This document shows, one piece after another, positions 4,474-63,812 of a DNA stretch of 64,000 nt. Both the position numbers and the translations under genes were made by a program. Source of the DNA: an uncultured Spirochaetota bacterium (GTDB lineage Bacteria > Spirochaetota > Spirochaetia > SZUA-6 > CAVTHK01); the NCBI GenBank assembly GCA_963734495.1, contig CAVTHK010000005.1:128001-192000 (forward strand), in the 5' to 3' direction. Each line of letters opens with the position of its first letter. The stretch's first letter is position 1. Under the pieces are notes generated by a model. It saw only the letters and a program-made list of their open reading frames with translations. It made no database searches and was not told the DNA's origin.

Positions 4474-5745
4474 ATGATGTATTTCAGCCGCGGCAGCGCC
4501 ACGGATTCGCTGGACCGGAACGCCCTGCGCGAAGGCCTCTACGCCGCGCTCGACAAGCTCGGCCCGCGGAAAAAAGTGCTCGCGATCCCCCCCGATTTCA
4601 CGCGCTTCCACTCGCAGGCCGGCGTGCTGACGGAGCTCTCGTGGGAGCGCTTCGGCGAGCGCCTCACGGACGTGCTGCCGGCCATCGGGACGCACTTTCC
4701 GGTGAGCGACCACGAGATCGCCACGATGTTCGGGCGGACGCCGAAAAGCCTCTTCCGGGTGCACGACTGGAAGAACGGCCTGGAGACCCTCGGCCGCGTG
4801 CCCGCCGATTTCGTACGGAAAGTGAGCGAAGGCAAGCTCGACTGGGACTGGCCGGCGCAGGTCGACCGGCTGCTCGTCAAGGGCGGCTTCGACCTGATCC
4901 TGTCGATCGGCCAGGTCGTGCCCCACGAAGTCATCGGCATGGCCAACTTCAACAAGAACATCTTTGTAGGCACCGGCGGCTCGGAGGGCATCAACAAGAG
5001 CCACTTTCTCGGCGCCGTCTACGGCATGGAGCGCATGATGGGGCGGGCCGACACGCCGGTGCGGCGGGTCCTCAACTACGCGTCCGAGCATTTCGCGCGC
5101 AGCCTTCCCATTGTCTATGTCCAGACGGTCGTCTCGCGCGGAGCCGATGGGAAGCTCGCGGTCCGCGGCCTGTACATCGGCGACGACGTGGAATGCTTTC
5201 ACCGCGCCGCGGAGCTGTCGCTCGAGGTCAACTTCGAGATGCTCGAGCGGCCGCTGAGGAAAGTCGTCGTGTTCCTCGATCCCGAGGAGTTCAAGAGCAC
5301 CTGGCTCGGCAACAAGAGCGTCTACCGGACCCGCATGGCGATCGCCGACGGCGGCGAGCTCATCGTGCTCGCGCCCGGCGTGCGCGAGTTCGGCGAGGAC
5401 AAGGGCATCGACAGGCTGATCCGCAAGTACGGATACGTCGGCACGCCCAAGGTGCTGGAAGCGGTCGCGCGAGAGAAGGAGCTGCAGGAAAGCCTCGGCG
5501 CGGCGGCGCACCTGATCCACGGCTCTTCCGAGGGCCGCTTCGTCATCACGTACTGCCCGGGCAAGCTCAGCAGGCAGGAGATCGAGAGCGTCAATTTCGG
5601 GTACGGCGATCTCGCCGCGATGACGAAGAAGTACGATCCGGCGAAGCTCAGGGACGGCATGAACACGGTGGGCGGCGAGGAAGTCTTCTACATCTCCAAC
5701 CCTGCGCTGGGGCTGTGGGCATACAGGGAGCGCTTTGCGTCGTAG
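4474..5745 (+). CDS. LarA-family (DUF2088) nickel-pincer-dependent racemase/epimerase, GntE-like
   Basis: PDFTR, IGTH, PHEVIGMANFNKN and NKSH motifs correspond by eye to LarA D72/R75, H108, H174/K184 and H200. Confidence 0.88.
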   Translation: MMYFSRGSATDSLDRNALREGLYAALDKLGPRKKVLAIPPDFTRFHSQAGVLTELSWERFGERLTDVLPAIGTHFPVSDHEIATMFGRTPKSLFRVHDWKNGLETLGRVPADFVRKVSEGKLDWDWPAQVDRLLVKGGFDLILSIGQVVPHEVIGMANFNKNIFVGTGGSEGINKSHFLGAVYGMERMMGRADTPVRRVLNYASEHFARSLPIVYVQTVVSRGADGKLAVRGLYIGDDVECFHRAAELSLEVNFEMLERPLRKVVVFLDPEEFKSTWLGNKSVYRTRMAIADGGELIVLAPGVREFGEDKGIDRLIRKYGYVGTPKVLEAVAREKELQESLGAAAHLIHGSSEGRFVITYCPGKLSRQEIESVNFGYGDLAAMTKKYDPAKLRDGMNTVGGEEVFYISNPALGLWAYRERFAS

Positions 5746-5837
5746 GGGCGGCCCCACGCGGCGCGGAAATAAAGAGGGCCCGCCGGGCACGGCGGGCTTG
5801 GGACGCGGCGCAGACGCCGCATCATAGGAGAAAACAG

Positions 5838-7294
<1,457 letters not shown>

Positions 7295-8069: not shown

Positions 8070-8121
8070 GATGCGGCAATCCAAAGACCGCGCCGGTCCG
8101 AAGAGTAGTATGGGGACCGCC

Positions 8122-8853
8122 ATGAATGATGGTGACCACGTAGGGGAGCTGGTTTCCGGATACGTCCTCGGCGCGCTCGACGACCGGGAGACTCTGCGGG
8201 TTGCCCGGCATCTCGCCTCGTGCCCCCTGTGCCGGCAGGAAATCGACGCCTGTTCCCGCGTGCTCGATGAGCTGGGGATGGCCGGGCCCGAGGTGACTCC
8301 CCCCGACGACCTGTGGGATCGCCTGCAGCAGCGCATCGCCGCCGACAAGCGGGAGGAGCCCGCCGCGGAAGAAGCCGTCGTCGAGCGGCGCCGCGGCGGC
8401 CTCTTCGGCCTCTTCTCGGGCCGGGCCTTGATCGCCGCCAGTCTCGCGGCGTCCATCCTCGTCGTCGCCGGCCTCACGGCCGTTGCGGTCGTGCTCCGCC
8501 AGCAGCGGGGCGTGGAAGCGCTTCGCAGCCTGGAGATGCCCGTCTTCAAGCTCTCGGGGACGCAGGAGATGCCGGGCGCGACCGCGCTCGTGGTCAGCAA
8601 CTCCAACGGCGAGCGCGGCACCCTCGTGGTCGACGGCCTGCCGGCGTTGAAGGGCGGCAAGGTCTACCAGCTGTGGCTGACGCGCGACGGCGAGAGCGTG
8701 GACGGGGCCAACTTTATCGTCGACGATGAAGGATATGCCACCGTCATTGTCCATGCGCCCCGGCCGTTGACCGACTACACCGGCTTCAGCGTCACGATGG
8801 AGCCCGAAGGGGGCAGCCTCGCGCCGACCGGCCCCCCTCTCCTGCGGAAGTAG
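8122..8853 (+). CDS. Zinc-binding (ZAS) anti-sigma factor with RskA domain
   Basis: YVLGAL and HLASCPLC (HxxxCxxC), a single TM helix, then LPALKGGKVYQLW and FSVTMEPEGGSLAPTGP. Start could be 8062 or 8110. Confidence 0.9.
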   Translation: MNDGDHVGELVSGYVLGALDDRETLRVARHLASCPLCRQEIDACSRVLDELGMAGPEVTPPDDLWDRLQQRIAADKREEPAAEEAVVERRRGGLFGLFSGRALIAASLAASILVVAGLTAVAVVLRQQRGVEALRSLEMPVFKLSGTQEMPGATALVVSNSNGERGTLVVDGLPALKGGKVYQLWLTRDGESVDGANFIVDDEGYATVIVHAPRPLTDYTGFSVTMEPEGGSLAPTGPPLLRK

Positions 8854-8872
8854 TCCATCCCCGCACTCCCAT

Positions 8873-8898
8873 GAATCCAACATCCCGGTCGCTGCGAA
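8873..8898 (+). promoter_or_regulatory. Candidate ECF (SigK-type) promoter
   Basis: GAATCC-N16-CGAA between the anti-sigma gene and the downstream secreted-protein genes. Confidence 0.4.
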
Positions 8899-8975
8899 GA
8901 TAGGGAGCGTATGCGATCGCAGGGCGGCTCGTCGAGCCGCGCGGGAAAATGATTCGGACTGCGGGAGGGTTTCCA

Positions 8976-9515
8976 ATGAATTTCCGATTCATGGCTACGG
9001 TGGTGATCATCGTGGCGGTCAGCCTCGGCGTTCCGGCGATTGTCGCCGCGCGCGGCGCCGCCGAGTCGCGCGACGCCACCGTGAACGTGGCAACGAGCGA
9101 TCGGTTCGGCCCGATCCTCGTCGACTCGAAAGGCATGACGCTCTACGTCTACGAGAAGGACTCCCCGGGGGTGAGCAACTGCTACGGCGGATGCGCCGGC
9201 GCATGGCCGCCGCTGACCGTCGCGGACGAAGACCAGGCGAAGGCCGGGGCGCGGGCCAAGGGCAAGGTCGCCGTGATCGACCGCACCGACGGTTCCTACC
9301 AGGTGACCTACAACGGCATGCCGCTCTACACCTTCGCCTCGGACAAGAAGCCGGGCGACGTGACCGGGCAGGACGTCGGGAAGGAAGGCGCGAAGTGGTA
9401 CGTGGTGCCGCCGAGGGCGACCAGCGTCGCCAAGGCGGAGGCGCTTTCGGAGGCGGCGGGAGAGCAGCAGAACAGCGCCGGGATGCGGGCGTCGTCTTCG
9501 AGCTCGAGCTACTGA
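8976..9515 (+). CDS. Secreted Lipoprotein_15 repeat protein (COG4315)
   Basis: Signal peptide; GMTLYVYEKD..SNCYGGCAGAWPPL and QVTYNGMPLYTFASDKKPGDVTGQ repeats. Confidence 0.9.
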   Translation: MNFRFMATVVIIVAVSLGVPAIVAARGAAESRDATVNVATSDRFGPILVDSKGMTLYVYEKDSPGVSNCYGGCAGAWPPLTVADEDQAKAGARAKGKVAVIDRTDGSYQVTYNGMPLYTFASDKKPGDVTGQDVGKEGAKWYVVPPRATSVAKAEALSEAAGEQQNSAGMRASSSSSSY

Positions 9516-9592
9516 TGCGGCTTGCCGTGACTCCCCCGGCCTCCGGGCCGCGGGAGCCGCGGCACCGCCAGATGATGGAAGAGAGGTACAAA

Positions 9593-9988
9593 ATGAGAAA
9601 GCTTTCTGGCATCCGCAGCCTGCACGTGCTGCCGCTGCTCGCCGCGCTGGCGTTTGCCGGCTGCGCCACGAGCGGCCCGGCGACCAGAGTCGCGGTCGGG
9701 AGCGGCCCGATCGCCATGCGAGCCGGGGACTTCATGTTCGAGCCTCGCGACTTGCAGGTCAAGGGTACGGGCACGCTGACCCTTCGGATTACCAACGAGT
9801 CGGGCACGCCGCACGACTTCACTCTCAAAGACCCCGCGGGCAGGGTAATCACCAAGGTCGAGCTCCCGGCGAACCAGACAACCACGGCAACCGTCGATCT
9901 TCCCGCCCCCGGGATCTACAAGTTCGACTGCACCAAGCCTCTGCATGCTGCGCTCGGGATGACGGGCCGGATCGTGGTGACCAGTTAG
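9593..9988 (+). CDS. Cupredoxin-domain lipoprotein
   Basis: Lipobox LAFAGC; type-1 copper ligand pattern PHDF ... FDCTKPLHAALGMTG. Confidence 0.88.
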   Translation: MRKLSGIRSLHVLPLLAALAFAGCATSGPATRVAVGSGPIAMRAGDFMFEPRDLQVKGTGTLTLRITNESGTPHDFTLKDPAGRVITKVELPANQTTTATVDLPAPGIYKFDCTKPLHAALGMTGRIVVTS

Positions 9989-10788
9989 GGCGCGCGAGCC
10001 GGCGCGCCCTCAGCCGTTCGACCGGAGAGCAGGATCCGGTGCGCCACCACGGCCGCTCCGAACCCGTTGTCTATGTTGACGACGCAGACGCCGGCGGCGC
10101 ACGAGTTGAGCATCGCCAGCAGCGCCGCGAGGCCGCCGAAGCTGGCCCCGTAGCCGACCCGCGTCGGCACACCGATGACGGGGCAGCGGGCGAGGCCGCC
10201 GATGACGCTGGTGAGCGCGCCTTCCATCCCCGCGACGCTGATGATGACCGATGCCCCGGCGATCGCGCTCAGGCTGCCGAGCAGCCGGTGGAGGCCTGCC
10301 ACGCCCACGTCGTACGCGCGCTCCACGCGGGAGCCGAGAAACTCGACGGTCTGCGCCGCTTCCTCGGCGACCGGCAGGTCGGCGGTCCCCGCCGCCGCGA
10401 CCAGCACGGCACGCGCGTCCCGCGGCGCCGGGTGCTCGGCGCGCGCGAGCGTAACCAGGCGGGAGACGGGGTCGTAGCGCGCCTCGGGAATCTCCTTCTG
10501 TACGGCGGCGGCCATGTCCGCGGCGGCGCGAGTCCCCATCACCCGGTCGTGGTGCTGCCACAGCCTCTTCAGGATCGCGATCGTCTGATCCGCGGTCTTG
10601 CCCTCGCAGTAGACGACCTCCGGCATCCCGGTGCGCAGCTCGCGGTGCAGGTCGAGGCGGGCGTGGCCGAGGTCCTCGAACGGAAGCAGGCGCAGCCGCT
10701 CGAGCGCCTGATCCGGCGTGACCCGGCCGCGGCCCACGTCCTCGAGCAGCCGGCGCAGTCTCTCGCTGTCCATCTCTCCGGGCTCCAT
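9985..10788 (-). CDS. larB: Nickel pincer cofactor biosynthesis protein LarB
   Basis: [50 protein letters not shown] and [11 protein letters not shown] motifs. Confidence 0.96.
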
Positions 10789-51648: not shown

Positions 51649-52449
51649 TCAAGCTCCGTCAGCGTCGGCGCCGGCGCGGGCGTTGCGCACCTGCACGAGC
51701 TGGGCCGCGACGCCCACCGCGATCTCGGCGGGCGAGGCGCCGCCGATCGCGAGGCCGATGGGCGCGGCCAGCCTCGCGATCTTCCCGCGGTCGAAGCCCT
51801 CCGCTTCCAGCTCGCGCCTCAGCACGGACGCCTTGGCCCTGCTGGCGATGACGCCGAGGTACTTCCACTCCCGTTTCATGAAGAAGCGGGCGAGCCTGAA
51901 GTCCGTGGGATGGTCGCGGCTGACGATGACAATGTAGGAGTCCGGCGACGGGGGCAGGTCCCGCTCGAGCACGGCCTCGTCGAAGGAGTTGATGATCCGG
52001 GCCGCGCCGGGAAAGCGCTCCGCGTTCGCGTACTCCTGCAAGGAGTCCACGACCGTCACCGAGAAGTCGAGCTCCCTGACCACGGCGAACAGCGACCTGC
52101 CGACGTGTCCCCCGCCGCAGATGACGAGCTGTGGCGGAACGGCCACCGGCTCGACGAAGTAGGACACGCGGCCGCCGCATGCCATCCCCAGGTCGCTTCC
52201 GAGATCCTTCTTGAAGAGGCGTGGGCCGCCCGCGGCCCTGAGGATCTCCAGCGCTTCCCGCTGGGCCGTGTGCTCGAGGTTGCCGCCGCCTATGGTCCCG
52301 TAGCTCAGATCCCGCTCGCCGACGTCCACCACGAGCATCTTGGCGCCGGGGACCTGCGGAGCGCTCCCGGCGACCGAGACGATCGTGACGAACGCGCACC
52401 GGCGGCCTTCGGCGTTGTGCCGCGCGGCCTGCGCGAGCAGCGTGATCAT
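51649..52449 (-). CDS. xdhC: XdhC/CoxI family molybdoenzyme accessory protein
   Basis: GSAPQVPGAKM, GTIGGGNLE, GMACGG, GGGHVG and APIGLAIGGASPAEIA motifs. Confidence 0.92.
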   Translation of the reverse strand: MITLLAQAARHNAEGRRCAFVTIVSVAGSAPQVPGAKMLVVDVGERDLSYGTIGGGNLEHTAQREALEILRAAGGPRLFKKDLGSDLGMACGGRVSYFVEPVAVPPQLVICGGGHVGRSLFAVVRELDFSVTVVDSLQEYANAERFPGAARIINSFDEAVLERDLPPSPDSYIVIVSRDHPTDFRLARFFMKREWKYLGVIASRAKASVLRRELEAEGFDRGKIARLAAPIGLAIGGASPAEIAVGVAAQLVQVRNARAGADADGA

Positions 52450-52576
52450 GACGCCATCGTAGTGCCGCGTGGTTTCCCCTGTCCAGCGCGCACCGTCGCG
52501 GCTTCTCTCTGGCGGTGCCAATCCGTTATAATGCGGGAAAAGATGGAGACCCTCGCCGGGCAGGCGAACATACGAC

Positions 52577-53923
52577 ATGACCAATAACCATCAGGGGCGC
52601 CGCGGCCGCATCGCGCGCGCCGCGCGGTCGCTCGCGGCCGCGGCTGTCCTCACGCTCGCGTTCGCCGGCTGCACGTCGATGTCGGACACCGTGTTCCTCG
52701 TGCGCAAGGTCGACGGCGCGGCCAAGAGCCGGGCCGTGACCGAACAGGGCATCTCGATCTACGAGGTGCGGGTGCTCGGACGCCAGGACTACGCGGCGAT
52801 CGAGGAGGCGCGCCGCTACTTCGAGGTCGCGCTGCGCTTCGATCCCGACAATACCCGCGCCCGCCAGTACCTGGAGACCGTGGACAGGTTCCGCGCGTCC
52901 GAGCTGCGGGCCAGGACCGAGCGGGCCGCCGACCTGCTGAAAAGGACCGGCCGCAGCGAGCAGGAGAGCTGGGCGATGCTCCTCCTCGTCCGCCAGGCGG
53001 CGGCCCTGTCGCCCGCCGACGCGCGGGTGGTCTCGCTGATGGCCGATACCGAGCAGGTCAGGGCCGCGATGGTCAAACAGCTCATGGAGCGGGCCCGCGC
53101 CGCCCACGAGCAGATCAGGCAGGACGATCCGCAGCGGGAGCAGAAGCTCCTCGACGTCAAGGACCAGTACGATCGCATCCATGCCATACAGCCCGACTAC
53201 GTCGATCTGCAGGTCAGGCGCTCCGCGGTCAGCGGCGAGCTCGACCGCATCTTCAAGGACGGCTCCCTGCGGGCCTCCCGGCGCATCGATGCCGCGCAGT
53301 TCGTCGAGGCGCGCGAAGAGATCGACCGGCTCGACGGGCTGAACCGCAGGCTCGACTACGCTCACGACGAGGAGGTCCGCGGCCTCTCCTACCGGCTGAA
53401 CTACCACTGGGCGAAGGATGCCTACGGCCGCAAGCAGCTCGGCCTCGCGGGCGCCAGAGTCGACGCCGCGCTCCGCGCCCGGCGGACCGACGAGGCGGCC
53501 GCGCTCAAGGCCTCCATCGAAGACGACCTGCAGCGCGCAGCCCGCGCTGCCGCGGCCGCCCCCCCGGTGGGCGCGCCCGGCGGGTCGGCGGCGGGCCAGG
53601 CGGCGCTGCAGGAGGTGCAGGACCTCGTCCGAAGGGGAGAGCTCGCGGCCGCCAACCGCAGGATCAACGCCCTGCTCGGGACGACCGGCGACCGCGAGAT
53701 CGTCGCGGGCCTCAGGGAGCAGCAGGCCGCCGTCAGGGCGCGCCTCCCCGACCTCTACGCCCGGGGCGTCGAGGCGTACCGGCAGGAGGACTTCAAGCGG
53801 GCTGTCGACCTCCTCTCGGTCGTCGTCGAGATCGACGTCGGCTACGAGCAGGCCGGCGACTACCTCGACAAGGCGCGGGCCAAGCAGAAGCTGCTCGAGA
53901 GCCTGCAGGGGAGCAGAGGGTGA
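52577..53923 (+). CDS. All-helical TPR-like lipoprotein
   Basis: Lipobox LAFAGC; TPR-like segments ARRYFEVALRFDPDNTRARQYL and YARGVEAYRQEDFKRAV..YEQAGDYLDKA. Confidence 0.78.
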   Translation: MTNNHQGRRGRIARAARSLAAAAVLTLAFAGCTSMSDTVFLVRKVDGAAKSRAVTEQGISIYEVRVLGRQDYAAIEEARRYFEVALRFDPDNTRARQYLETVDRFRASELRARTERAADLLKRTGRSEQESWAMLLLVRQAAALSPADARVVSLMADTEQVRAAMVKQLMERARAAHEQIRQDDPQREQKLLDVKDQYDRIHAIQPDYVDLQVRRSAVSGELDRIFKDGSLRASRRIDAAQFVEAREEIDRLDGLNRRLDYAHDEEVRGLSYRLNYHWAKDAYGRKQLGLAGARVDAALRARRTDEAAALKASIEDDLQRAARAAAAAPPVGAPGGSAAGQAALQEVQDLVRRGELAAANRRINALLGTTGDREIVAGLREQQAAVRARLPDLYARGVEAYRQEDFKRAVDLLSVVVEIDVGYEQAGDYLDKARAKQKLLESLQGSRG

Positions 53924-56041
53924 ACGGCGGCGCGACCGGCCTCGCGGCGAGGCCTGCTGCCCCACGCGGCGGAGATGGTCTGGGGCGTGCTCGTTCTCGC
54001 GTGGATGGGGGTGGGGATCCTCACGAGCTCCGGCGTCGACCCCGTCCACATGGCGACGTCGCTCCCGCGTCCGGGGCTGTCTTTCCTGCTGATGACGGCC
54101 TGCGTCTGGGCGCTTGCCGGGGCGTGCGTGTTCAAGATCGCGGCGCCGCTCCTCGGCGGCCCGCTCGCGTGGGCGGCCGCGCCGGACCGCGCGGGCGCCG
54201 CGCTGCTGGCCGCCCTCGCCTCGGCCGCGGCGATGACGCTGATCGCCCTGCACCTGTCCTCCCGCGCCGCGAGCGCCGCGTACTTCATCGGCCTGACGCC
54301 CCTCGACTACGCCGTCGCCGCCGCGTCGCTCGCCCTGAACGCCTGGTCGCTCGCGCGGCTGATCGTCCTGGCCAATCTCCGCGACGCGACCTACCGCGAG
54401 TACCTGGAGTTCCGCAGGGGCAGGCCGACGGGAGCGACGGGGACCTGCTGCGGGCCAGCATCCAGAAGAGGCTGACCCTTTCGTTCGTCGGCTTCATCCT
54501 CGTCGTCATCGTCGTCCTCGCGACGGTGCTGATGACCGGGTTCAGCCGCACGATCCTCAAGGCGGTGATCGACAACGGCAGCTCGCTCGCCGACCGCGCC
54601 GCGAGCGTCATCAAGGCCAACCTCGGCGACGACATCGCCATCGCCGACTACTTCGACATCGAGCAGAAGAAGAACGCGGCCGCGGGGTTCCCGTTTCGCA
54701 GCCTCTCCTTCTACGGCCGCAGGCCCGGCGGCGACTCGTACTTCGTGAGCCACAGCACGGACGAGACGCTGCGCGGGCAAGGAGCTCCCGCCGGCGTACC
54801 GCGGCGCGACGCAGGCGGGCAACCTCTACAGCGAGGGCGGCAGGACCTTCGAGTTCCTCGCCCCCGTCGTCCTGAGCGACGTGCGGGTCGGCTACGTGCT
54901 CGCCGACTACGACCGCGACGTGATCTACCAGCCCTATTTCCGGACCCAGGTGCGGGTCGTGCTCGTCGCCGCGCTCTTTGTCTACGTCTCGGTGTTCGGG
55001 GTCTACGTCTTCGGCACCAACATCGTCTTCCCGATCCTGTTCCTGCGCATGAGCGTCAAGCGGATGAGCGGGACGCTGGACGACATGATCCGCGGCCGCG
55101 TGCGCGTCTCGGCCGAGCTGCTGCGCTACGAGGACAGGGTCCCGACCCGCGACGAGATCAAGATGCTGTCGGCCGAGATCGGCAACATGACCACGGTCAT
55201 CAAGGGAATCATCCCCTACATCTCCGCGTCCACGCTCAAGCAGGCCGAGCGGGCGACGCCGACTTCGGAGGCCAGGCACCAGGCCGTTCTCTTTACCGAC
55301 ATCCGCGGATTCACCACCATCAGCGAAGGCATGGCGCCGGCCGAGGTGGTCGAGATCCTCAACCACTACCTCGGGCTGCAGCAGAGCATCATCTACCAGC
55401 ACCACGGCGACGTCGACAAGTTCATCGGCGACGCGGTGATGGGCGTCTTCGAAGGCCCCACGCGCGAGCTCAACGCGTGCCGGGCGGCCATGGCGATCCG
55501 CACGGCGATGGCGAAGGACAGGGAGCTCAAGCAGAGCGAGAAGCGGAACCTGATCTCCATCGGGATCGGGATCAACACGGGGCCGGTGGTGTTCGGCAGC
55601 GTGGGGGCGGGGGACCGCTTGGCCTACACGAGCATCGGCGACACCGTCAACCTCGCCGCGCGCCTCGAAAGCGCCAACAAGGAGTACGGCACCAAGAGCC
55701 TGGTTTCCGAAGAGGTCTACAAGAAGGTCCGCGACGCGTTCGTCTGCCGGGAGATCGACCTGCTCACCGTCAAGGGCAAGAGCCGGCCGGTGCGCATCTA
55801 CGAGATCCTGCAGGAGAGAAGCAAGGCCGCCGTGAAGATCACGGCGCTCGCTCAGAGCTTCGAGAAGGGGCTGGCCCTGTATCGCGCGCGGAGGTGGGAC
55901 TCCGCGGCGACGGTCTTCGAGGTCCTGGGCAAGCGGCTCGACGACAAGCCGAGCCGCGTGTTCGTCGAGCGCATCGGGGCCTTCCGCGCGAGCCCCCCGC
56001 CGCGGGGCTGGGACGGCGTCTACACCCTCTCCTTCAAGTAG
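53920..56041 (+). CDS. Membrane-bound class III adenylate cyclase; about 3 apparent frameshifts
   Basis: VLFTDIRGFT, DKFIGDAVM, IGIGINTG and YTSIGDTVNLAARLES motifs, with TM segments upstream. Shifts are near 53955, 54440 and 54790. Confidence 0.88.
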
Positions 56042-56795
56042 CCGCTGGGGCGCCGCGGGGCTCGGCGGCGGCCTCGAAGAAACGCTGCACCGCGGCCGGC
56101 GCGCGGGCGCTCCCCGCCAGCGGGCCGTCGTAGATCACGCGGCCCTCGTCCAGGAAGACGATGCGATCGGCGAGCCTGCGGATGCTCGGGGGCTCGTGGG
56201 TCACGATGATCAGGCTCATGCCGAGCCGCGCCCGCAGGCTCAGGATGAGGCGGTCGAGGCTCGCCGAGGTCACCGGGTCCAGCCCGGCGGACGGCTCGTC
56301 GAAGAACAGGAGCTCGGGGTCCAGCGCCAGGGCGCGGGCCAGGGCCGCCCGCTTGCGCATGCCGCCGGAGAGCTCGGACGGCAGCCGGTCCTCGGAGCCG
56401 TCGAGGCCGACGAGGGCGAGCTTGCTGCGCGCGATCCTGGCGACGAGGCCGGCAGGCAGCGCCGTGTGCTGCTGCAGCGGGATGGACACGTTTTCCAGCA
56501 CGGTCATCGAGTTGAGCAGGGCACCGGCCTGGAAGAGCATGCCGGTCCTGCGCCGCACGCGCTGCCAGCCCTCCTCGTCGAGGCGGCCGGTGTCCTCTCC
56601 GAGGACGATCACCTCGCCCGAGTCGGGCCGCAGCAGTCCCACGATGGCCTTGAGCAGCGTCGTCTTGCCGCACCCGCTGGGGCCGAGGACGACGGTGATC
56701 TCGCCGCGCCGCATGTCGGTGCTCACGCCCGCGAGCACCGTTCGCTCGCCGTAGCTCACCACGAGGTCGCGCACCGTGACCACGGCTTCGCTCAC
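56034..56795 (-). CDS. mlaF: MlaF/Mkl-family ABC ATPase
   Basis: GPSGCGKT, GMLFQAGALLNSMTV, LSGGMRKRAALARA and DEPSAGLDP motifs. Confidence 0.93.
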   Translation of the reverse strand: MSEAVVTVRDLVVSYGERTVLAGVSTDMRRGEITVVLGPSGCGKTTLLKAIVGLLRPDSGEVIVLGEDTGRLDEEGWQRVRRRTGMLFQAGALLNSMTVLENVSIPLQQHTALPAGLVARIARSKLALVGLDGSEDRLPSELSGGMRKRAALARALALDPELLFFDEPSAGLDPVTSASLDRLILSLRARLGMSLIIVTHEPPSIRRLADRIVFLDEGRVIYDGPLAGSARAPAAVQRFFEAAAEPRGAPAAT

Positions 56796-57877
56796 GGCAG
56801 GTACACCAGGCTGAAGAGGACGTCGGCGACGATCACGGCAAAGATCGAGGCCACCACCGAGCGGGTCGTCTCGCGGCCGACGCCCTCGGCCCCGCCGGTC
56901 GCGTGCAGGCCGCAGTGGCTGGAGATCACGGCGATCAGCCACGCGAACACCACGCTCTTGGCGAGGCCGCTCAGGATGTCCTGGGCTCGCAGCACGCTGA
57001 TGGACTCGTTCACGTAGGCGATCACGGGGATGTGCAGGTAGCTCACCGCCACCAGGAGGCCGCCGAAGATGCCGATCAGGGTGGAGAGCGTCACGAGGAG
57101 CGGCGTGCAGAGCGTGATAGCGAGGAGCTTGGGAACCACCACGTAGCGGACGGGGTCGATCGCCATGGTGCGCAGCGCGTCGATCTCCTCGCTCACCTTC
57201 ATCGTGGCGATCTCGGCGGCCATGGCCGACCCGCTGCGGCCGGCGATCAGGATCGCCGTCATCATCGGCCCCATCTCGCGGACCATCGACACCGCGACCA
57301 GGTCGGCGACAAAGATGTTCGCGCCGACGAGACGGAGCTGCGCCGCGGCCTGCAGCGAGAGGATCAGGCCGATGATGAACGACAGCAGCCCCACCACCCC
57401 GACCGCGTCGAGGCCGATCAGCACCGCCTGCTCGACGACGGCCCCGCGCCGGTGGCCGCTGCGGTCGGCGAGGGCGCGGGCCGCGGCGGCGAACACGTCC
57501 GCGGCGAGCTGCGCGACCTCGCGGACCGCGGTCATGCCGCCGTAGAGGCGGCCCCCCAGCCGGGCGAGCGCCGGCTCGCGGCGCGCGGCCTCGAGGGGGC
57601 GCAGCTCGGGCGTGAGCGCGGCCAGCACCGCCGCGACCTCCGTGCCGGCGGACACCAGGGTCAGGCCGGGGAACCGCGCGCGCAGCTCGGCGACAAACGC
57701 GGCCCCCGCGCTGTCGGCGCGCGTCACGCGCGCGAGGTCGAGGACGCGCACGTGCTCCGCAGGCAGCCGGAGCACGCGTGCCCAGAGACCCGGCACCGAC
57801 TCCGCATCGAGAGGCCCGATCAGGGCGAGCGTATTCTCCTGCAGAGCGACCGCGGCCGAGTCGCTATCGGACGACAT
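56792..57877 (-). CDS. mlaE: MlaE-family permease with N-terminal STAS (MlaB-like) domain
   Basis: DLARVTRADSAG (STAS); REMGPMMTAILIAGRSGSAMAAEIATMKVSEEIDAL and GGAEGVG motifs. Confidence 0.94.
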   Translation of the reverse strand: MSSDSDSAAVALQENTLALIGPLDAESVPGLWARVLRLPAEHVRVLDLARVTRADSAGAAFVAELRARFPGLTLVSAGTEVAAVLAALTPELRPLEAARREPALARLGGRLYGGMTAVREVAQLAADVFAAAARALADRSGHRRGAVVEQAVLIGLDAVGVVGLLSFIIGLILSLQAAAQLRLVGANIFVADLVAVSMVREMGPMMTAILIAGRSGSAMAAEIATMKVSEEIDALRTMAIDPVRYVVVPKLLAITLCTPLLVTLSTLIGIFGGLLVAVSYLHIPVIAYVNESISVLRAQDILSGLAKSVVFAWLIAVISSHCGLHATGGAEGVGRETTRSVVASIFAVIVADVLFSLVYLP

Positions 57878-59975
57878 ACGTGAGCCTCAGCACGAGCCGG
57901 TGATCGACGACAAAGTAGTGCCCGGGCACAACGGGGACCCGGTTGTTGAGATTGAGCCGATACTCGAGCAGGAGGTACCTGAAGAGGCTCAGGTCGAAGA
58001 TGTTCTCCCAGTCCAGCGAGACCTGGCTGCCTCGCTCGAAGGGGAACAGCACCTCCGAAGACAGCGTGTACGTCAGGCCGAACGGCAGGTTCACCGTGCC
58101 CAGCGCGGAAACCTCGATCCCGGTCTGGTACTGCGAGGGAACCTCCTCGTACACCTGGAAGACGTCGGGTCCAACCGTTTCCGTGCCCGTAACCGTGTAC
58201 ACGTCACCGTTGAAGTCCTGGCGGAGGCCCAGGCCCGCGCGCACGCTGAGCTCGGCGCGGGAGAGGTTGATCACACGGAAGTTCAGCCCCGCGCCTTCCT
58301 GAAGGATCAGCGGGAGAAAGCTCGGCTTGACCTGCGTCTGGAGCACGTTCGTTTCGCTCGACAGGAGCGTCCCGTCCGTCGCGCGCTTGTGCACGTTCTG
58401 CGCGGTCGCGAAGTAGACGTATTCCGGGAAGAAATGGGTCGCGACGTCGAAGCGGCTGTAGAGCCCCACGTCCTTGAGAAAGAAATAGATGAGCGTGTTG
58501 TTGAGGATGAGGTCGTCGGAAGAGATGCGGAAGTCGGTGTCCGGCGATTTGGTGACGCCCGTATCGAGGAGCATCCGCATGGTGTACAGCAGCGGCGAAA
58601 GGTCGACGACCAGGCGCGTGTCGACCTCGCCGGTGACCGTCGTCTGCGTCTCGAAGCTCTGGGGATCGATCTCGTTGCTGCTCGAGAAATCCGTCGTGCC
58701 GGAAATGGTCGAGGTCACGCGCACGGGCTGCTTGGCCTGCCCGCCCGGCCCTTCTTCGAGGACGCCGGCGCCCACGAGGTCGGTCGGGTTCCCGGTCTGG
58801 TCGACGCCCACCACGATCGTGAGGCGTTTCGTGTCGCCCGCGCCGAGGGTGAGGGTGGTAAAGTCTTTGTAGGTGACGAACGGCTGGTTCCTGATCGTGA
58901 TCTTCCACAAGCCGGGGTGCAGGATCCAGGCCCGGCTCTGCTCGCCGAGCGTCTCGTTGGCGGAGATATCGGTTCCGTAACTGTCTCCCGTCGCGGCGTC
59001 GAAGACCTCGTAGCCGATCTTCACGAAATCCCGGTCCTCCGTGACGATGGAAACGGTGAGCGCTCCCCAGGTCGGTTCGATGACGCGCTTGTAGCGGGGG
59101 ACGACCAGCACGTTGCTGATCTCCTGGAGCTGATTCTCGCGCCCCGAGCCGTACTCGATGCGGTAGCGGCCCTCAGGCAGGACCACCGGCACTCCCATCT
59201 TCGCCGAGGCCACCTCGGTGCGCGACGGCCCGAACACGTGGTAAAAGGGTTCCTGCTCGGTGCCCGTGAGGGCCGGCATCAGGATCACGCCCGCGTTCGG
59301 GCTCTCCCCGGTGAGCGGCTCCAGCCGCCCCTCGGTAGGCGCGGGGAAAAGCTCGCTCCGCTGCCCCGTCTGCAGATAGAGAACGATCTTCGAGATGAAG
59401 CGGTCGGTCTCCTCGAGCAGCATGTCGTTGGCGGCGATCACGAACGACTCCACGCTGGAGTCCGCAAGCGCCTGCTCGCGCGCGACCCTGTGGTGGACGG
59501 GGCTGTCGCCCGAGGAGCGGGCGGTCAGGACAAAGTCCATCTCCAGGTGCGCCTGCCCCTTCGTGTCGACGCGCACCAGCTCGAAGGCGTCGACGTTCGT
59601 CGCGACTTCGAAGTCCACGCTCTCCGTGGAGTATTCCCGCCTGACCTCTGAGAACACGCGGTAGCGCTGCAGCCTCGTCGCCACGAGGTCGGCGATCTTC
59701 GGCGGGAGGCTGACTCCCCAGAGATCGGTCGTGGAGTAGGAGAAGCGCGGCCCGATGTCCCGCACCACGATCTGCTTCCGGTCGTAGGTGCGCGAGATGC
59801 GGGTGTCGGTCACCTGCGCCGTCGAAGGAAACGGCTGCTGGCGGATCATGTCGCTGTTCTCGAGCTGCGGGTAGTACTCGAGCATGTAGTAATTGGTCGA
59901 GGGAATCACCTGACTGACGCAGCCGGCCAGCGCAAGGAGCCCGGCGGCGACCGCGGCGTATCGAAGGTGGCTCAT
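57864..59975 (-). CDS. 703-aa lipoprotein: PqiC/ABC_trans_aux-like domain, two small beta-sandwich domains and a putative C-terminal outer-membrane beta-barrel (DUF3078-like)
   Basis: Lipobox LAGC, then YYML, IVVR and YS..DLW (PqiC pattern); LPEGRYRIEY and LHPGLWKITI; the last ~290 aa are alternating amphipathic strands ending LVLRLTYVVR. Uninterrupted ORF overlapping both neighbours. Confidence 0.75.
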   Translation of the reverse strand: MSHLRYAAVAAGLLALAGCVSQVIPSTNYYMLEYYPQLENSDMIRQQPFPSTAQVTDTRISRTYDRKQIVVRDIGPRFSYSTTDLWGVSLPPKIADLVATRLQRYRVFSEVRREYSTESVDFEVATNVDAFELVRVDTKGQAHLEMDFVLTARSSGDSPVHHRVAREQALADSSVESFVIAANDMLLEETDRFISKIVLYLQTGQRSELFPAPTEGRLEPLTGESPNAGVILMPALTGTEQEPFYHVFGPSRTEVASAKMGVPVVLPEGRYRIEYGSGRENQLQEISNVLVVPRYKRVIEPTWGALTVSIVTEDRDFVKIGYEVFDAATGDSYGTDISANETLGEQSRAWILHPGLWKITIRNQPFVTYKDFTTLTLGAGDTKRLTIVVGVDQTGNPTDLVGAGVLEEGPGGQAKQPVRVTSTISGTTDFSSSNEIDPQSFETQTTVTGEVDTRLVVDLSPLLYTMRMLLDTGVTKSPDTDFRISSDDLILNNTLIYFFLKDVGLYSRFDVATHFFPEYVYFATAQNVHKRATDGTLLSSETNVLQTQVKPSFLPLILQEGAGLNFRVINLSRAELSVRAGLGLRQDFNGDVYTVTGTETVGPDVFQVYEEVPSQYQTGIEVSALGTVNLPFGLTYTLSSEVLFPFERGSQVSLDWENIFDLSLFRYLLLEYRLNLNNRVPVVPGHYFVVDHRLVLRLTYVVR

Positions 59976-60856
59976 GGCTGCTCCCGGCCCCTCTGGCGGA
60001 GCAGCAGAGACGGATTCTCGCTGATGAGCAGCGCGAAGTCGCTCAGGGATTGCACCGTCTCGCGCAGCGCCGACACGGTGTCGACCAGGTCCCGGCGCGT
60101 GCGCAGCACCGTCACGTCTATGTTCGCGATCGCGTCGCGCGCCTGCGTGATCGTCCGGTTGAGGTTCGTGCTGACGTCCGCCACGTCGGCATCCGTGACC
60201 GTGCGGTCCACGTGCCCGATCAACTGGTTGAAAGAGCCCATCGCGGCTCTCAAGCTCGTGGTGGTCGCCGCGAGGTCCGCGATGAGACCCGCGAGCGGTT
60301 CCCGGCTCTCGGCGACGAACGAGTCGACGTTGCGGACGATGTTGTTGAAGTGCGCCTGGTTCTCCGCGCTCATCAGCTGGGAGATATTGCCCAGAATCGT
60401 GTCGAGCTTGGTCGCGATCGTCTCCGCCGGGGCCAGGATCCTTTCCAGGACCGACTGGCCGCCCTCGATGGTAAAGCCGGGAGGCGCGGGCGGCGTATCG
60501 TTGCTGCCGCCGCTCAGCTCGATCTGCATGAGCCCCGTGATCCCCACCGGGATGAGCATCGCCTTAACGTCGGTGCGCACGGGCGTCCCTTCGCGCACGC
60601 TGATGGAAACCAGGACGGTCCGGATGTCCGTCGTCGAGAAGCGGATGTCCTCGACGGTCCCCACGTCGACCCCCTGGTAGCGGACCGTCCCCCCGATCTG
60701 CAGTCCGCTGATCGAGGTGCCCCGATAGGCGACGACGTACGGCGTGCGCCGCTCGAGGAGCCTGCGGCCGCCGACGATGCCGAGAAAGGCCGCAAGGAGG
60801 GCCACAATGACGATCAGAAAGACCGCAAGCCTGACTCGCTGTCCCCGGGTTATCAT
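59972..60856 (-). CDS. mlaD: MCE/MlaD-family protein with C-terminal helical extension
   Basis: Single N-terminal TM helix; SGLQIGGTVRYQGVDVGTV and GITGLMQIELSGG motifs, a long heptad-rich region, and ENPSLLLR at the end. Confidence 0.94.
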   Translation of the reverse strand: MITRGQRVRLAVFLIVIVALLAAFLGIVGGRRLLERRTPYVVAYRGTSISGLQIGGTVRYQGVDVGTVEDIRFSTTDIRTVLVSISVREGTPVRTDVKAMLIPVGITGLMQIELSGGSNDTPPAPPGFTIEGGQSVLERILAPAETIATKLDTILGNISQLMSAENQAHFNNIVRNVDSFVAESREPLAGLIADLAATTTSLRAAMGSFNQLIGHVDRTVTDADVADVSTNLNRTITQARDAIANIDVTVLRTRRDLVDTVSALRETVQSLSDFALLISENPSLLLRQRGREQP

Positions 60857-61089: not shown

Positions 61090-61098
61090 CGATCGACC

Positions 61099-62652
61099 AT
61101 GGGTCCTCTGCTGGCCGGAAGGCTCACTCATATCCTCCTTCTCCTCGCGGCGACGGGCGCCGCGTTCGCCCTGGGATGGGCGATCAAGTGGGCGTCCGCG
61201 CACATCGCCCTCGCGTCGTCCCGCGCCACTGCTGACCGCGCCGCGCGCGACGGGGCGCGGGCCACCGACGAGGCGCGCGTCCGCATGACGGAAGAGGGCA
61301 AGGCGGACCTCGCGCTCGAGCGCAAGTCGCTCGAAGAGGAGCTCGGCGAGCTCAAGCGCACCGTCACCGAGCTCGACGAGCAGATGCAGCAGAGGGAGGC
61401 CGGCGCCGCCGCGAGACAGGGCGAGGTCGACCAGGCGCGGCAGGCGCTCGAGGCGCGGGACGCCGCGCTCGACGCACGCGCGGCCGCGACGGCCGATCTG
61501 CGGCGCGAGGTCCACGCGCGGCTCGAGCGCATCTCCGGCACCACCCGCGAGCAGATCAAGGAGCAGATCGTCCAGTCGATCCTCAATGAGGAGCGCCGGG
61601 ACGCGCAGCACGTCCTGCAGCGGGCCGAGGCCGAGATGGAGCGGACGGCCGACGTCAAGGCCCGGGAGATCGTCACCGCCGCGATGCAGAGCCTGCCCGT
61701 GACCGAGGCGCTCGACACGGGGCCCGCGGGCCTGGAGACGCCGAGCGCCGACGCGATGATGCGCCTGCTCTCGCGCGAGGGCCGCAACGTGCGCATCCTC
61801 GAGCACCTCCTCGGCGTCGAGATCCTCATCGACGACCCGCGGGAGGGGCTCGCGCTCTCGGCGAACGACCCTGTGGCCCGCGAGCTCGCCAAGGTGACGC
61901 TGCACCTGCTGTTCAAGGAGAACAGGATCCATCCCTCGCTCATCGAGATGACGGTCAAGAAGGCGCGGAGGGAGATCGAGGACAACATGCGCCAGGAGGC
62001 GACCAGCGTCCTGCGCGACCTGGGCATCCGTGACCTCAAGCGCGAAGCGGTGGAGACCGTGGGGCGGCTCCTGTACCGCTACAGCTACGGCCAGAACCAG
62101 CTCTACCACTCCAAGGAGGTGGCGGTCCTCGCCGCTCACCTGGCCCAGGCGCTCGGCTGCGACCCGGCTGTCGCGCGCCGCGCCGGGCTGCTGCACGACA
62201 TCGGCAAGGCCATCACCGAGGACGGGCGCCCGCACACGGAGATCGGGGTGGAGCTCGCGAGGCGCTGGGGCGAGGACGAGCGCGTCGTGAACGCCATCGC
62301 CTCGCACCACGACGACGTGGAGCAGACCTGCGTCGAGTCGCACCTCGTCAAGATCGCGGACGCCATCTCGGGGTCCAGGCCGGGGGCGAGGCAGGAGACG
62401 ATCACCAACTACCTGGAGCGCGTGGAACGCCTCGAGAAGATCGCGGAGAGCTTCGAGGGAGTCGAAAAGGCGTTCGCGATCTACGCCGGCCGCGAGCTGC
62501 GCATCCAGGTCGACAGCGAGAAGGTCTCGGACGAGCAGGCGGCGACCCTCGCCTCCGAAGTCGCCCGGCGCGTCGAGAAAGAGCTGACCTATCCGGGCAA
62601 GATCACCATCACGGTGATCCGCGAGATGAAGGCCAGCGTGTACACGCGGTAG
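61099..62652 (+). CDS. rny: Ribonuclease Y
   Basis: N-terminal TM helix, coiled coil, KH-like REGRNVR, YRYSYGQN, HD motif GLLHDIGK, ADAISGSRPGAR and YPGKITITVIRE. Confidence 0.93.
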   Translation: MGPLLAGRLTHILLLLAATGAAFALGWAIKWASAHIALASSRATADRAARDGARATDEARVRMTEEGKADLALERKSLEEELGELKRTVTELDEQMQQREAGAAARQGEVDQARQALEARDAALDARAAATADLRREVHARLERISGTTREQIKEQIVQSILNEERRDAQHVLQRAEAEMERTADVKAREIVTAAMQSLPVTEALDTGPAGLETPSADAMMRLLSREGRNVRILEHLLGVEILIDDPREGLALSANDPVARELAKVTLHLLFKENRIHPSLIEMTVKKARREIEDNMRQEATSVLRDLGIRDLKREAVETVGRLLYRYSYGQNQLYHSKEVAVLAAHLAQALGCDPAVARRAGLLHDIGKAITEDGRPHTEIGVELARRWGEDERVVNAIASHHDDVEQTCVESHLVKIADAISGSRPGARQETITNYLERVERLEKIAESFEGVEKAFAIYAGRELRIQVDSEKVSDEQAATLASEVARRVEKELTYPGKITITVIREMKASVYTR

Positions 62653-62714
62653 CTCCGCCGCGGTCCCCCGCGCCCCGGACAGACCGCTGCGCTCCGTCAT
62701 GAGGTGAAGTCGCG

Positions 62715-63812
62715 ATGAAGATCCGCGTCGGGGTGCTCTTCGGCGGCAAGAGTGCCGAGCACGAGGTCTCACTCCAGTCGGCGAAGAACGTGATCGACGC
62801 GATGGACCCCGCGAAGTACGAGGTCGTGCTGATCGGGATCGACAAGAGCGGCCGCTGGCACTGGCACGGCGAAGCGCAGAAGCTCCTCGAGCAGGGGCGG
62901 CTCGGGAGGCTGGAGTCCCCGCGGCCTGAGGCGACGCAGGTGGCGCTGCTGCCGGGCAGCGAGCGGACGGAGCTCGTCGACTGGTCGTCGCGCAGGAGCT
63001 TCGGCCCCGTGGACGTGATCTTCCCCGTGCTCCACGGCCCGTTCGGCGAGGACGGCACGGTCCAGGGCCTGCTCAAGCTCGCGGACATCCCCTTCGTCGG
63101 GGCGGGCGTGCTCGGCTCCGCGGTGGGCATGGACAAGGACGCGATGAAGCGCCTCCTCTCGCAGGCCGGCATCCCGAACGCCCGCGGCATCGTCGCGCGG
63201 CAGTCCGAGCTCCCGGTCGACGCCGCGGCGGTGGCCGCGGAGCTCGGCCTTCCCCTGTTCGTCAAGCCTGCCAACCTCGGCTCGTCTGTCGGGATCACCA
63301 AGGTCAAGTCGGTCGCCGACCTCGCCCCGGCGATCGATCTCGCGCTCCGCTTCGACCGCAAGGTCGTCGTCGAGGAGTACGTGAGCGGCCGGGAGCTGGA
63401 GTGCTCGGTGCTCGGGAACGACGACCCGATCGCCTCGCTTCCCGGCGAGGTGATCCCGAGGGGCGAATGGTACTCCTACGAAGCCAAGTACATCGACGAG
63501 AACGGCGCCGCTCTGCAGATCCCCGCGAGGCTGGACCGCGAGACCGTGGAGCGCGTGCAGCGCATGGCGGTGCAGGCCTTCAAGGCGCTGTGCTGCGAAG
63601 GCATGGCGAGGGTCGACTTCTTCCTGAGGCCCGACGGACGCCTCTACGTGAACGAGATCAACACGATCCCCGGCTTCACGCGCATCAGCATGTACCCCAA
63701 GCTGTGGGAAGCCTCCGGGATCGGCTACGGGGAGCTGGTCGACCGGCTGATCGCGCTGGCGCTCGAGCGCGCGCGGGCGGAGCGCTCGCTCAAGACCTCG
63801 TACCGGGAGTAG
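62715..63812 (+). CDS. ddl: D-alanine--D-alanine ligase
   Basis: GGKSAEHEVSLQSA, LHGPFGEDG, VKPANLGSSVGI, YSYEAKY and NEINTIPGFT motifs. Confidence 0.97.
   Translation: MKIRVGVLFGGKSAEHEVSLQSAKNVIDAMDPAKYEVVLIGIDKSGRWHWHGEAQKLLEQGRLGRLESPRPEATQVALLPGSERTELVDWSSRRSFGPVDVIFPVLHGPFGEDGTVQGLLKLADIPFVGAGVLGSAVGMDKDAMKRLLSQAGIPNARGIVARQSELPVDAAAVAAELGLPLFVKPANLGSSVGITKVKSVADLAPAIDLALRFDRKVVVEEYVSGRELECSVLGNDDPIASLPGEVIPRGEWYSYEAKYIDENGAALQIPARLDRETVERVQRMAVQAFKALCCEGMARVDFFLRPDGRLYVNEINTIPGFTRISMYPKLWEASGIGYGELVDRLIALALERARAERSLKTSYRE

Follow-up and report, generated by a model that had tools for sequence, protein, structure and literature searches.

The 64,000-nucleotide stretch of DNA analysed here (the window) comes from an uncultured Spirochaetota bacterium (assembly GCA_963734495.1, contig CAVTHK010000005.1, positions 128,001 to 192,000 of the forward strand) and carries, at 56034-60856 on its minus strand, four co-oriented, overlapping genes of an MCE lipid-transport operon: mlaD, a gene for a 703-residue lipoprotein, a STAS-mlaE fusion, and mlaF. 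What appears to be new in this operon is the lipoprotein, in which a PqiC-like protein is fused to a dedicated outer-membrane beta-barrel; in relatives the two parts may instead be encoded side by side, and the architecture is well supported. The evidence lies in gene content, in domain folds, in homology to PA3213 and PA3214, in conservation of the operon, and in repeated fusion or fission of the pqiC and barrel genes. The operon probably encodes an ATP-driven MCE lipid transporter of the PA3211-PA3214/Mpc type, whose outer-membrane end is a single polypeptide that would combine a PqiC-like ring, struts, and a barrel as the proposed substrate site.

The genes, and the parts of the lipoprotein, are placed as follows.

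59972..60856, minus strand: mlaD-type MCE gene, 294 amino acids (aa); an N-terminal membrane anchor is followed by one MCE domain and a long helical extension, and the conserved C-terminal tail reads ISENPSLLLR...
57864..59975, minus strand: lipoprotein-barrel fusion gene, stop included, 703 aa, one uninterrupted open reading frame (ORF)
59919..59975, minus strand: predicted signal peptide and lipobox, residues 1-19 (L-A-G-C19), read from the translation
59361..59918, minus strand: PqiC-like (ABC_trans_aux) domain, residues 20-205; PF03886, Foldseek match to XCC0632
59295..59360, minus strand: variable linker, residues ~206-227; low model confidence at 209-216, length varying among homologues
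58761..59294, minus strand: two predicted periplasmic beta-sandwich domains, residues ~228-405, with an invariant GAGVLEE at the end; model confidence (pLDDT) mostly >90
57867..58724, minus strand: predicted C-terminal beta-barrel, residues 418-703, 16 antiparallel strands by DSSP on the predicted model, with fold matches
56792..57877, minus strand: STAS(MlaB-like)-MlaE fusion permease gene, 361 aa; PF02405, STAS_2, NCBIfam mlaB_1
56034..56795, minus strand: mlaF ATPase gene, with a likely GTG start at 56795; longest ORF up to 56942

A preliminary description of this DNA, made from the letters alone, had reported four overlapping co-oriented genes and one clean frame for the lipoprotein, and both points stand: all four genes are recognized by Pfam or NCBIfam models, and their overlaps can be read at the junctions. 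The mlaD and lipoprotein genes overlap by 4 nucleotides, with an ATGA common to both; the lipoprotein gene overlaps mlaE by 14; and the mlaE stop overlaps the GTG at 56795 (GTGA). That GTG is the likely true start of mlaF, for a protein of 253 aa, a choice that fits the start of homology (tblastn self-match) at residue 44 of the longest ORF. The G+C content around the locus is about 66-74%.

The MlaD protein carries an MCE domain (PF02470, E 6.3e-12 in Pfam). A profile of 23 MlaD orthologues, compared with the PDB, finds PA3213 as the best solved relative (13hr_I, 312 aa; E 2.7e-36), in an alignment that spans chain residues 1-304 of 312 and takes in the ...E-(N/D)-P... region near the C-terminus. 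(PDB entry 13HR is the closed PA3214 ring from the work on PA3213 and PA3214, according to the data availability statement of PMC13631591.) The tail ISE(N/D)PS(L/I)L(L/I)R is kept in the 38 orthologues listed. For the permease, MlaE scores E 3.6e-74 (PF02405, Pfam), with a STAS_2 match at E 4.6e-8 and an MlaB-like match (NCBIfam mlaB_1) at E 1.3e-6 in the same ORF; the ATPase has MlaF as its best NCBIfam match (E 2.9e-62). The operon has an ATPase of MlaF type and a permease of MlaE type, and its single-MCE protein, a homologue of PA3213, carries a C-terminal helical needle. Because MlaD aligns over its full length to PA3213, we group the operon with PA3211-PA3214, XCC0632, and Brucella Mpc; judged by its sequence relationships, it is an MCE system of the PA3211-14/Mpc type with a barrel added. 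As a side observation, the STAS domain lies at the N-terminus of the permease, while MlaB of E. coli is a separate protein, and several of the metagenome loci considered below also have a STAS match in one ORF with MlaE.

The preliminary description had measured the operon against E. coli Mla and Pqi; the closest systems are instead PA3211-PA3214 and Brucella Mpc, with their single-MCE needle and PqiC-like ring. The PA3213 needle sits inside an octameric PA3214 ring, 48 Å high and about 95 Å wide, whose subunits have their N-termini towards the outer membrane and their C-termini towards the inner membrane, and a groove on the side of the ring that faces the outer membrane receives the C-terminal peptide of the MCE protein (PMC13631591). 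The PA3211-PA3214 / XCC0632 operon resembles the one in the window in encoding an ATP-binding cassette (ABC) ATPase, an MlaE-type permease, an MCE needle protein of about 300 aa with a single MCE domain, and a PqiC-like lipoprotein; it differs in that the window lipoprotein extends into two sandwiches and a barrel, the window permease has a fused STAS domain, and the window lipoprotein gene stands between mlaD and mlaE, in a different order. PA3214 has no known porin partner according to the authors of PMC13631591. Brucella abortus Mpc (MpcEFDA) likewise has an MlaFE-like ABC unit, an MlaD-like protein with a PqiB-like needle, a PqiC-like lipoprotein, and no MlaC (PMC12436622); its MpcA, however, is a stand-alone lipoprotein encoded last in the operon, and no barrel component is reported for it. 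E. coli PqiABC shares a PqiC-family lipoprotein that forms an octameric ring at the outer-membrane end of an MCE needle (PMC10897342), but PqiA does not belong to the ABC transporters, PqiB contains three MCE domains, and PqiC, at about 190 aa, lacks a barrel.

Two features for which the preliminary description named no characterised example, an MCE system with its own barrel and a protein both lipidated and barrel-forming, are already known. MlaEFD of Veillonella parvula is an MCE ABC system lacking MlaA and MlaC that has a beta-barrel covalently attached at its outer-membrane end (PMC10665443), and chloroplast TGD4 is cited as a porin-like partner (PMC13631591); CsgG (PMC13631591) and TamL (PMC12045153) are examples of the lipidated barrel. 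In V. parvula it is MlaD itself that ends in the barrel, without participation of a lipoprotein, whereas the window barrel sits on the PqiC-like lipoprotein and the window MlaD has a helical region and a short tail at its end.

The N-terminal part of the lipoprotein is PqiC-like by family, by lipobox, by an alpha/beta fold of the XCC0632/PA3214/PqiC kind, and by being encoded with an MCE protein. Its N-terminus, MSHLRYAAVAAGLLALAGC, contains the lipobox LAGC already noticed in the preliminary description, and its Cys19 is shared by at least 90% of the 14 full-length homologues in the alignment; a signal peptide with lipobox, and lipidation, are predicted. Residues 54-188 match ABC_trans_aux (PF03886) at E 1.3e-10 and 41.5 bits, against a cut-off of 26. 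A whole-protein AlphaFold2 model built from 14 sequences has a mean predicted local distance difference test score (pLDDT) of 70 and a predicted template modelling score (pTM) of 0.39, and its N-terminal part is matched by Foldseek to XCC0632 (2iqi_F) at E 2.4e-6, with a template modelling score of 0.72 on the target and a root-mean-square deviation (rmsd) of 4.3 Å over 168 columns. The proposed PqiC/ABC_trans_aux domain is supported by both of these matches. A profile of the 14 full-length homologues compared with PDB sequences has its best match at chance level (E 0.19). In 37 fused homologues the linker that follows (aligned to residues 200-228) ranges from 28 to 115 aa, with a median of 38.

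Residues 215-703, folded with a 110-sequence alignment, give a model with pLDDT 91.9 and pTM 0.72 in which two beta-sandwiches are followed by 16 long antiparallel strands (DSSP); the C-terminal part had already matched outer-membrane barrels in the whole-protein model. By structural search the second sandwich is transthyretin-like (YedX, Z 9.1, rmsd 2.4 Å; PucM, Z 8.6). The two beta modules postulated earlier are therefore found in the model, but the PEGA label given to them is unsupported by sequence, because a comparison of residues 215-410 with Pfam gives no match, even with the threshold relaxed to E <= 10; PEGA belongs to the same Pfam clan as transthyretin-like folds. For the barrel, Foldseek returns 245 matches at E <= 1e-3, and all the rows shown are outer-membrane barrels: FapF, EstA, NalP, FadL, TodX, OmpG, NanC, porins, and one TonB-dependent transporter. 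An independent VIA structural search of 48,161 representative chains has Tsx (Z 14.2, rmsd 3.8 Å, 209 aligned), NanC (13.0), and KdgM (12.7) as its best matches, with OmpG (Z 11.8), OMPLA (11.1), and the PelB barrel (9h80_M, 10.8) among the further ones. The C-terminal region, which the preliminary description had supposed to be an outer-membrane barrel, would appear to be a closed 16-strand barrel of that type, its closure resting on the fold matches rather than on inspected coordinates. Loops from strand to strand are 2-11 aa. On the polar face of the strands, which we took as lumen-facing and on which we assigned the positions ourselves, residues D487, Y506, R508, N565, R579, E621, and R697 show conservation of at least 80% among the 78 divergent family members compared. 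A scan of 78 family members finds ABC_trans_aux in 37, DUF3078 in 32 (best E 2.4e-9), and DUF481 in 15 (best E 2e-8), while DUF481 (PF04338) has no match in the window protein. Since relatives match these models and the window protein stays below cut-off, we file its barrel as related to DUF3078/DUF481, not as a member.

A lipoprotein domain of the same PqiC/LptE-like alpha/beta core fold is combined with an outer-membrane barrel in PelB-PelC, CsgG, and LptD-LptE; these export polysaccharide, curli, or lipopolysaccharide (LPS) and have no MCE needle. In PelBC a 12-mer ring lies beneath a single barrel, the barrel of CsgG is made up by the ring subunits themselves, and LptE is a monomeric plug (PMC13631591). 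The window lipoprotein could on this model be a plug-and-barrel of the LptD-LptE sort, its PqiC-like domain, which shares the LptE core fold, residing as a monomer in or under its own barrel with no octameric ring. The placing of LptE, CsgG, and PelC in one fold group with PqiC-like proteins (PMC13631591) speaks for such an arrangement, as does the 1:1 ratio fixed by fusion, which is natural for a plug and its barrel. We nevertheless regard it as highly improbable. For the N-terminal domain, fold comparison puts XCC0632, which forms rings, first; a linker of 28-115 residues and two sandwiches intervene between the PqiC-like domain and the barrel; and a 16-strand barrel whose loops are short seems to leave too little space for a domain of about 185 aa. 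LptD has 26 strands. Moreover, MlaD is a full-length homologue of PA3213, whose needle goes through the ring (PMC13631591).

The fusion is real, and in reference genomes the gene order around it is kept. Chance is set aside as its source: thirteen further full-length homologues share 40-64% identity with the window protein, and a search of 1.84 billion representatives gives 526 matches at E <= 1e-3. Among 40 reference-genome loci, labelled Cloacimonadota (most), Spirochaetales/Spirochaetota, Armatimonadota, and Marinimicrobia, the order mlaD-fusion-STASmlaE-mlaF is found in 40/40 wherever the contig allows. All four genes are visible in 28 of them (mlaD in 37, mlaE in 33, mlaF in 30), each missing gene coinciding with a contig end or, in locus L008, with a run of N; mlaD lies directly upstream of the fusion in 37, the other three being at a contig edge or N run. 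More distant fused proteins, of 724-813 aa, come from sources named Desulfobacterales, Myxococcales, and Bradymonadia and are annotated merely as PqiC or as ABC-type transport auxiliary lipoprotein. An assembly artefact was considered as the source of the fusion and rejected, since the fusion is kept in 53 loci of two distant clades. Separately, an apparent read-through from MlaD into the lipoprotein in L008 proved to be produced by the run of N. Public reads offer short, low-depth contigs of about 95-97% identity from wetland, soil, and sediment runs; the junction between the domains (59340-59426) is covered by none of these, which leaves them without bearing on the fusion either way. Two short contigs from a soil metatranscriptome library (X8) match the lipoprotein gene (57922-58169 and 59432-59604) at about 97% identity; they are no proof of transcription, as DNA carry-over may account for them.

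The preliminary description had proposed a survey for split pqiC and barrel genes next to mce genes, and such pairs exist in the same operon position. In the Cloacimonadota-labelled phylum the gene is present in 137 of 151 sampled genomes, essentially as a single copy: where two matches occur, in two genomes, they are fragments on separate contigs. About 17 of these genomes have a short open frame, of 518-558 aa. In 12/12 of the short-form loci examined a separate pqiC gene with a lipobox (202-217 aa from the first Met) lies directly upstream of the barrel gene, which in all 12 carries a signal peptide of its own. The full order mlaD-pqiC-barrel-STASmlaE-mlaF is seen in 10 of the 12; one of the others is cut by a contig end, and in one mlaD was not detected by the query used. 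A scan of metagenomes that started from the distant fused clade retained 80 loci, 21 of them fused, 43 split with both genes seen, and 16 with the barrel only (many contig-cut), and at least one of mlaD, mlaE, and mlaF is seen in 66. These loci show several gene orders, among them barrel-mlaE-mlaF-mlaD-pqiC, which puts the partners at opposite ends of the operon. A FastTree phylogeny of the sandwich and barrel module (110 unique rows of 115, with 5 duplicates and rows below 90% model coverage excluded) requires at least six changes between the fused and split states, or at least three after seven contig-cut "split" rows are set to unknown; as the tree is unrooted and without bootstrap, we claim no direction for these changes. 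That pqiC and the barrel gene occur as adjacent genes strongly supports, at the level of gene neighbourhoods, a functional pairing of their products.

A mechanism can be proposed on this basis. MlaF and STAS-MlaE would form the ABC unit in the inner membrane, and MlaD would provide an MCE ring with a helical needle crossing the periplasm. The lipoprotein would be held in the outer membrane by its N-terminal lipid anchor, and its PqiC-like domain would form a ring round the needle tip, holding the conserved C-terminal tail of MlaD. The flexible linker and the two sandwiches, acting as struts, would return the chain from the face of the ring nearer the inner membrane to the outer membrane, where a 16-strand barrel of the DUF3078/DUF481 kind would be inserted, and the barrel would be the place at which substrate leaves or enters the outer-membrane bilayer. 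We infer ring formation, docking, insertion of the barrel in the outer membrane, and its lipid-gating role from the relationships described above, and the parts would together make a continuous conduit across the envelope.

An alternative in which the barrel is an anchor or scaffold alone, fixing the PqiC-like ring in the outer membrane as OmpC/F scaffolds MlaA and taking no part in substrate movement, seems to us unlikely. The barrel is compact, with short loops and no extra domain; its putative lumen face is polar, with no hydrophobic path evident; and the ring itself may deform the membrane (PMC13631591). On the other hand, the lipid anchor has been retained beside the barrel in nearly all of the aligned homologues, which would make a second, pure anchor seem redundant. 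The strong conservation of putative lumen residues across the 78 members, and a pairing that survives at least three fusion or fission events and several gene orders, likewise sit poorly with mere anchoring.

Further observations weigh against a barrel that handles substrate at the tip of an MCE needle, or against parts of the evidence for it. The putative lumen-facing strand face averages -1.2 on the Kyte-Doolittle scale, and because it is polar a hydrophobic channel through the barrel is not evident. The alternation of hydrophobicity along the strands, though compatible with a membrane barrel, is given no weight here, since the soluble sandwiches score like the barrel (hydrophobic face +1.56 vs +1.54). 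Further down the VIA list there are also a few soluble folds of barrel-like form (a phycobiliprotein lyase, Z 10.1, and LolB-like proteins, Z about 9). The DUF3078 resemblance reported in the preliminary description stays below threshold in the window protein (residues 458-519, E 0.028, 15.3 bits vs 25; in the scan of the whole genome PF11276 reaches 19.2 bits, still below the cut-off of 25). The window protein ends in R, not in an aromatic residue, and its clade ends in ...LRLTYVVR or ...TYILR; distant homologues end in ...LRFSYxLF, ...LSWIIY, or ...LTIISF, of which ...LRFSYxLF reads as a typical C-terminal signal of outer-membrane barrels. The PqiC-like domain is modelled with moderate confidence, residues 63-88 falling below pLDDT 50, and its best PDB sequence match, to PA3214 (13hr_A), is weak (E 0.066). 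As to distribution, the window's own phylum has the gene in 2 of 201 sampled genomes, the window's genome included, and the second carrier has the split form; this patchiness, set against 137 of 151, could reflect loss or transfer between phyla. At one locus (L117) a sandwich and barrel member (4848-6470) lies upstream of an AcrB-family resistance-nodulation-division (RND) pump gene (8113-10530), with no MCE gene within 4-5 kb; from this neighbour, the barrel family may also serve other envelope systems. Lastly, fusion implies one barrel per ring subunit, a misfit to the single central barrel of a PelBC-like assembly; it suggests barrels arranged around the ring, and by our arithmetic a 95 Å ring would have peripheral room for eight barrels of this size.

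The genome (5.38 Mb in 18 contigs, 83% complete) gives some idea of the envelope in which the operon works. The preliminary description had set the operon apart from the Mla pathway with its shuttle parts, and neither MlaC nor MlaA (PF05494, PF04333) has a match in the 83% of the genome that was recovered. The genome has one PqiC-like gene, no paralogue of the fusion, of MlaD, or of MlaE by tblastn, four Omp85-family matches, Lgt, and TamB. LpxC and LptD have no match in the same incomplete assembly, and on that footing the outer membrane may be one without LPS. In such a membrane the upkeep of LPS asymmetry is an unlikely task, a point that would suit an uptake system, with the barrel as a FadL-like entry port for an external hydrophobic nutrient that the needle and ABC unit then carry inward, as in mycobacterial Mce. 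The NCBIfam model "Mtu_fam_mce" (TIGR00996) does match MlaD residues 10-273, and the matches from Foldseek and VIA include the channels FadL, TodX, and CymD. Still, those FadL-type matches are not the best (Z 8.6-10, vs 14.2 for Tsx), the barrel follows directly on the sandwiches with no N-terminal hatch domain, and the neighbourhood (cyclase, XdhC, RNase Y, Ddl) gives no hint of a catabolic pathway, all of which makes uptake of this kind very doubtful.

The sole other MCE-domain gene of the genome, of 239 aa, is at locus C10 123671-126811, where it adjoins an ABC ATPase in two ORFs (184 and 147 aa), a division that suggests a frameshift or sequencing error. Within the window, a class III adenylate/guanylate cyclase gene at 54881-56041 on the plus strand (PF00211, E 1.9e-22) runs convergently towards mlaF, and the ends of the two ORFs share 8 nucleotides (56034-56041). 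A plus-strand ORF of 448 aa at 52577-53923 has a lipoprotein-like signal at its N-terminus (...LTLAFAGC) and no Pfam match at E <= 1e-5. Further neighbours, at 61096-63812 on the plus strand and 51649-52584 on the minus strand, encode RNase Y (HD and RNase_Y_N domains), a D-Ala-D-Ala ligase (Ddl), and an XdhC-family protein, which from their annotations have no evident link to lipid transport.

The pairing of PqiC-like proteins with these barrels appears to be new. The DUF3078 and DUF481 families have no assigned function and no MCE link reported in the literature found, and among papers on PqiC/MCE and on DUF3078/DUF481 barrels we found no description of the pairing; supplements were searched for PMC10665443 alone, whose four supplementary files have no PqiC term, although one of its supplementary tables names genomes of Cloacimonetes and Spirochaetes. 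The 2026 account of PA3213 and PA3214 gives the outer-membrane partner of PqiC-like rings as unknown, with unidentified partners as one possibility (PMC13631591). A wider proposal, speculative and decidedly doubtful, is that PqiC-like rings in general, including E. coli PqiC and PA3214, are adaptors between an MCE needle and barrels of the DUF3078/DUF481 kind. In E. coli that barrel would be YdiY, which we take to be the DUF481 protein of that organism; the fused form would then be a crown of eight barrels round the ring, enclosing a patch where lipid is inserted or removed. In a preprint on coarse-grained simulations, many flips of phospholipids are reported at one surface of E. coli YdiY (10.1101/2024.12.09.627556), which is a lead only.

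It is an open question how MCE lipid transporters exchange cargo with the outer membrane. The operon family described here, found under the lineage labels Cloacimonadota, Spirochaetota, Marinimicrobia, Desulfobacterales, Myxococcales, and Bradymonadia, offers from comparative genomics a concrete candidate for the outer-membrane partner: a specific barrel family fused to, or encoded beside, the PqiC-like lipoprotein. The pairing makes the question of the partner directly testable, and it gives reason to look in model organisms for a barrel partner of equivalent kind.

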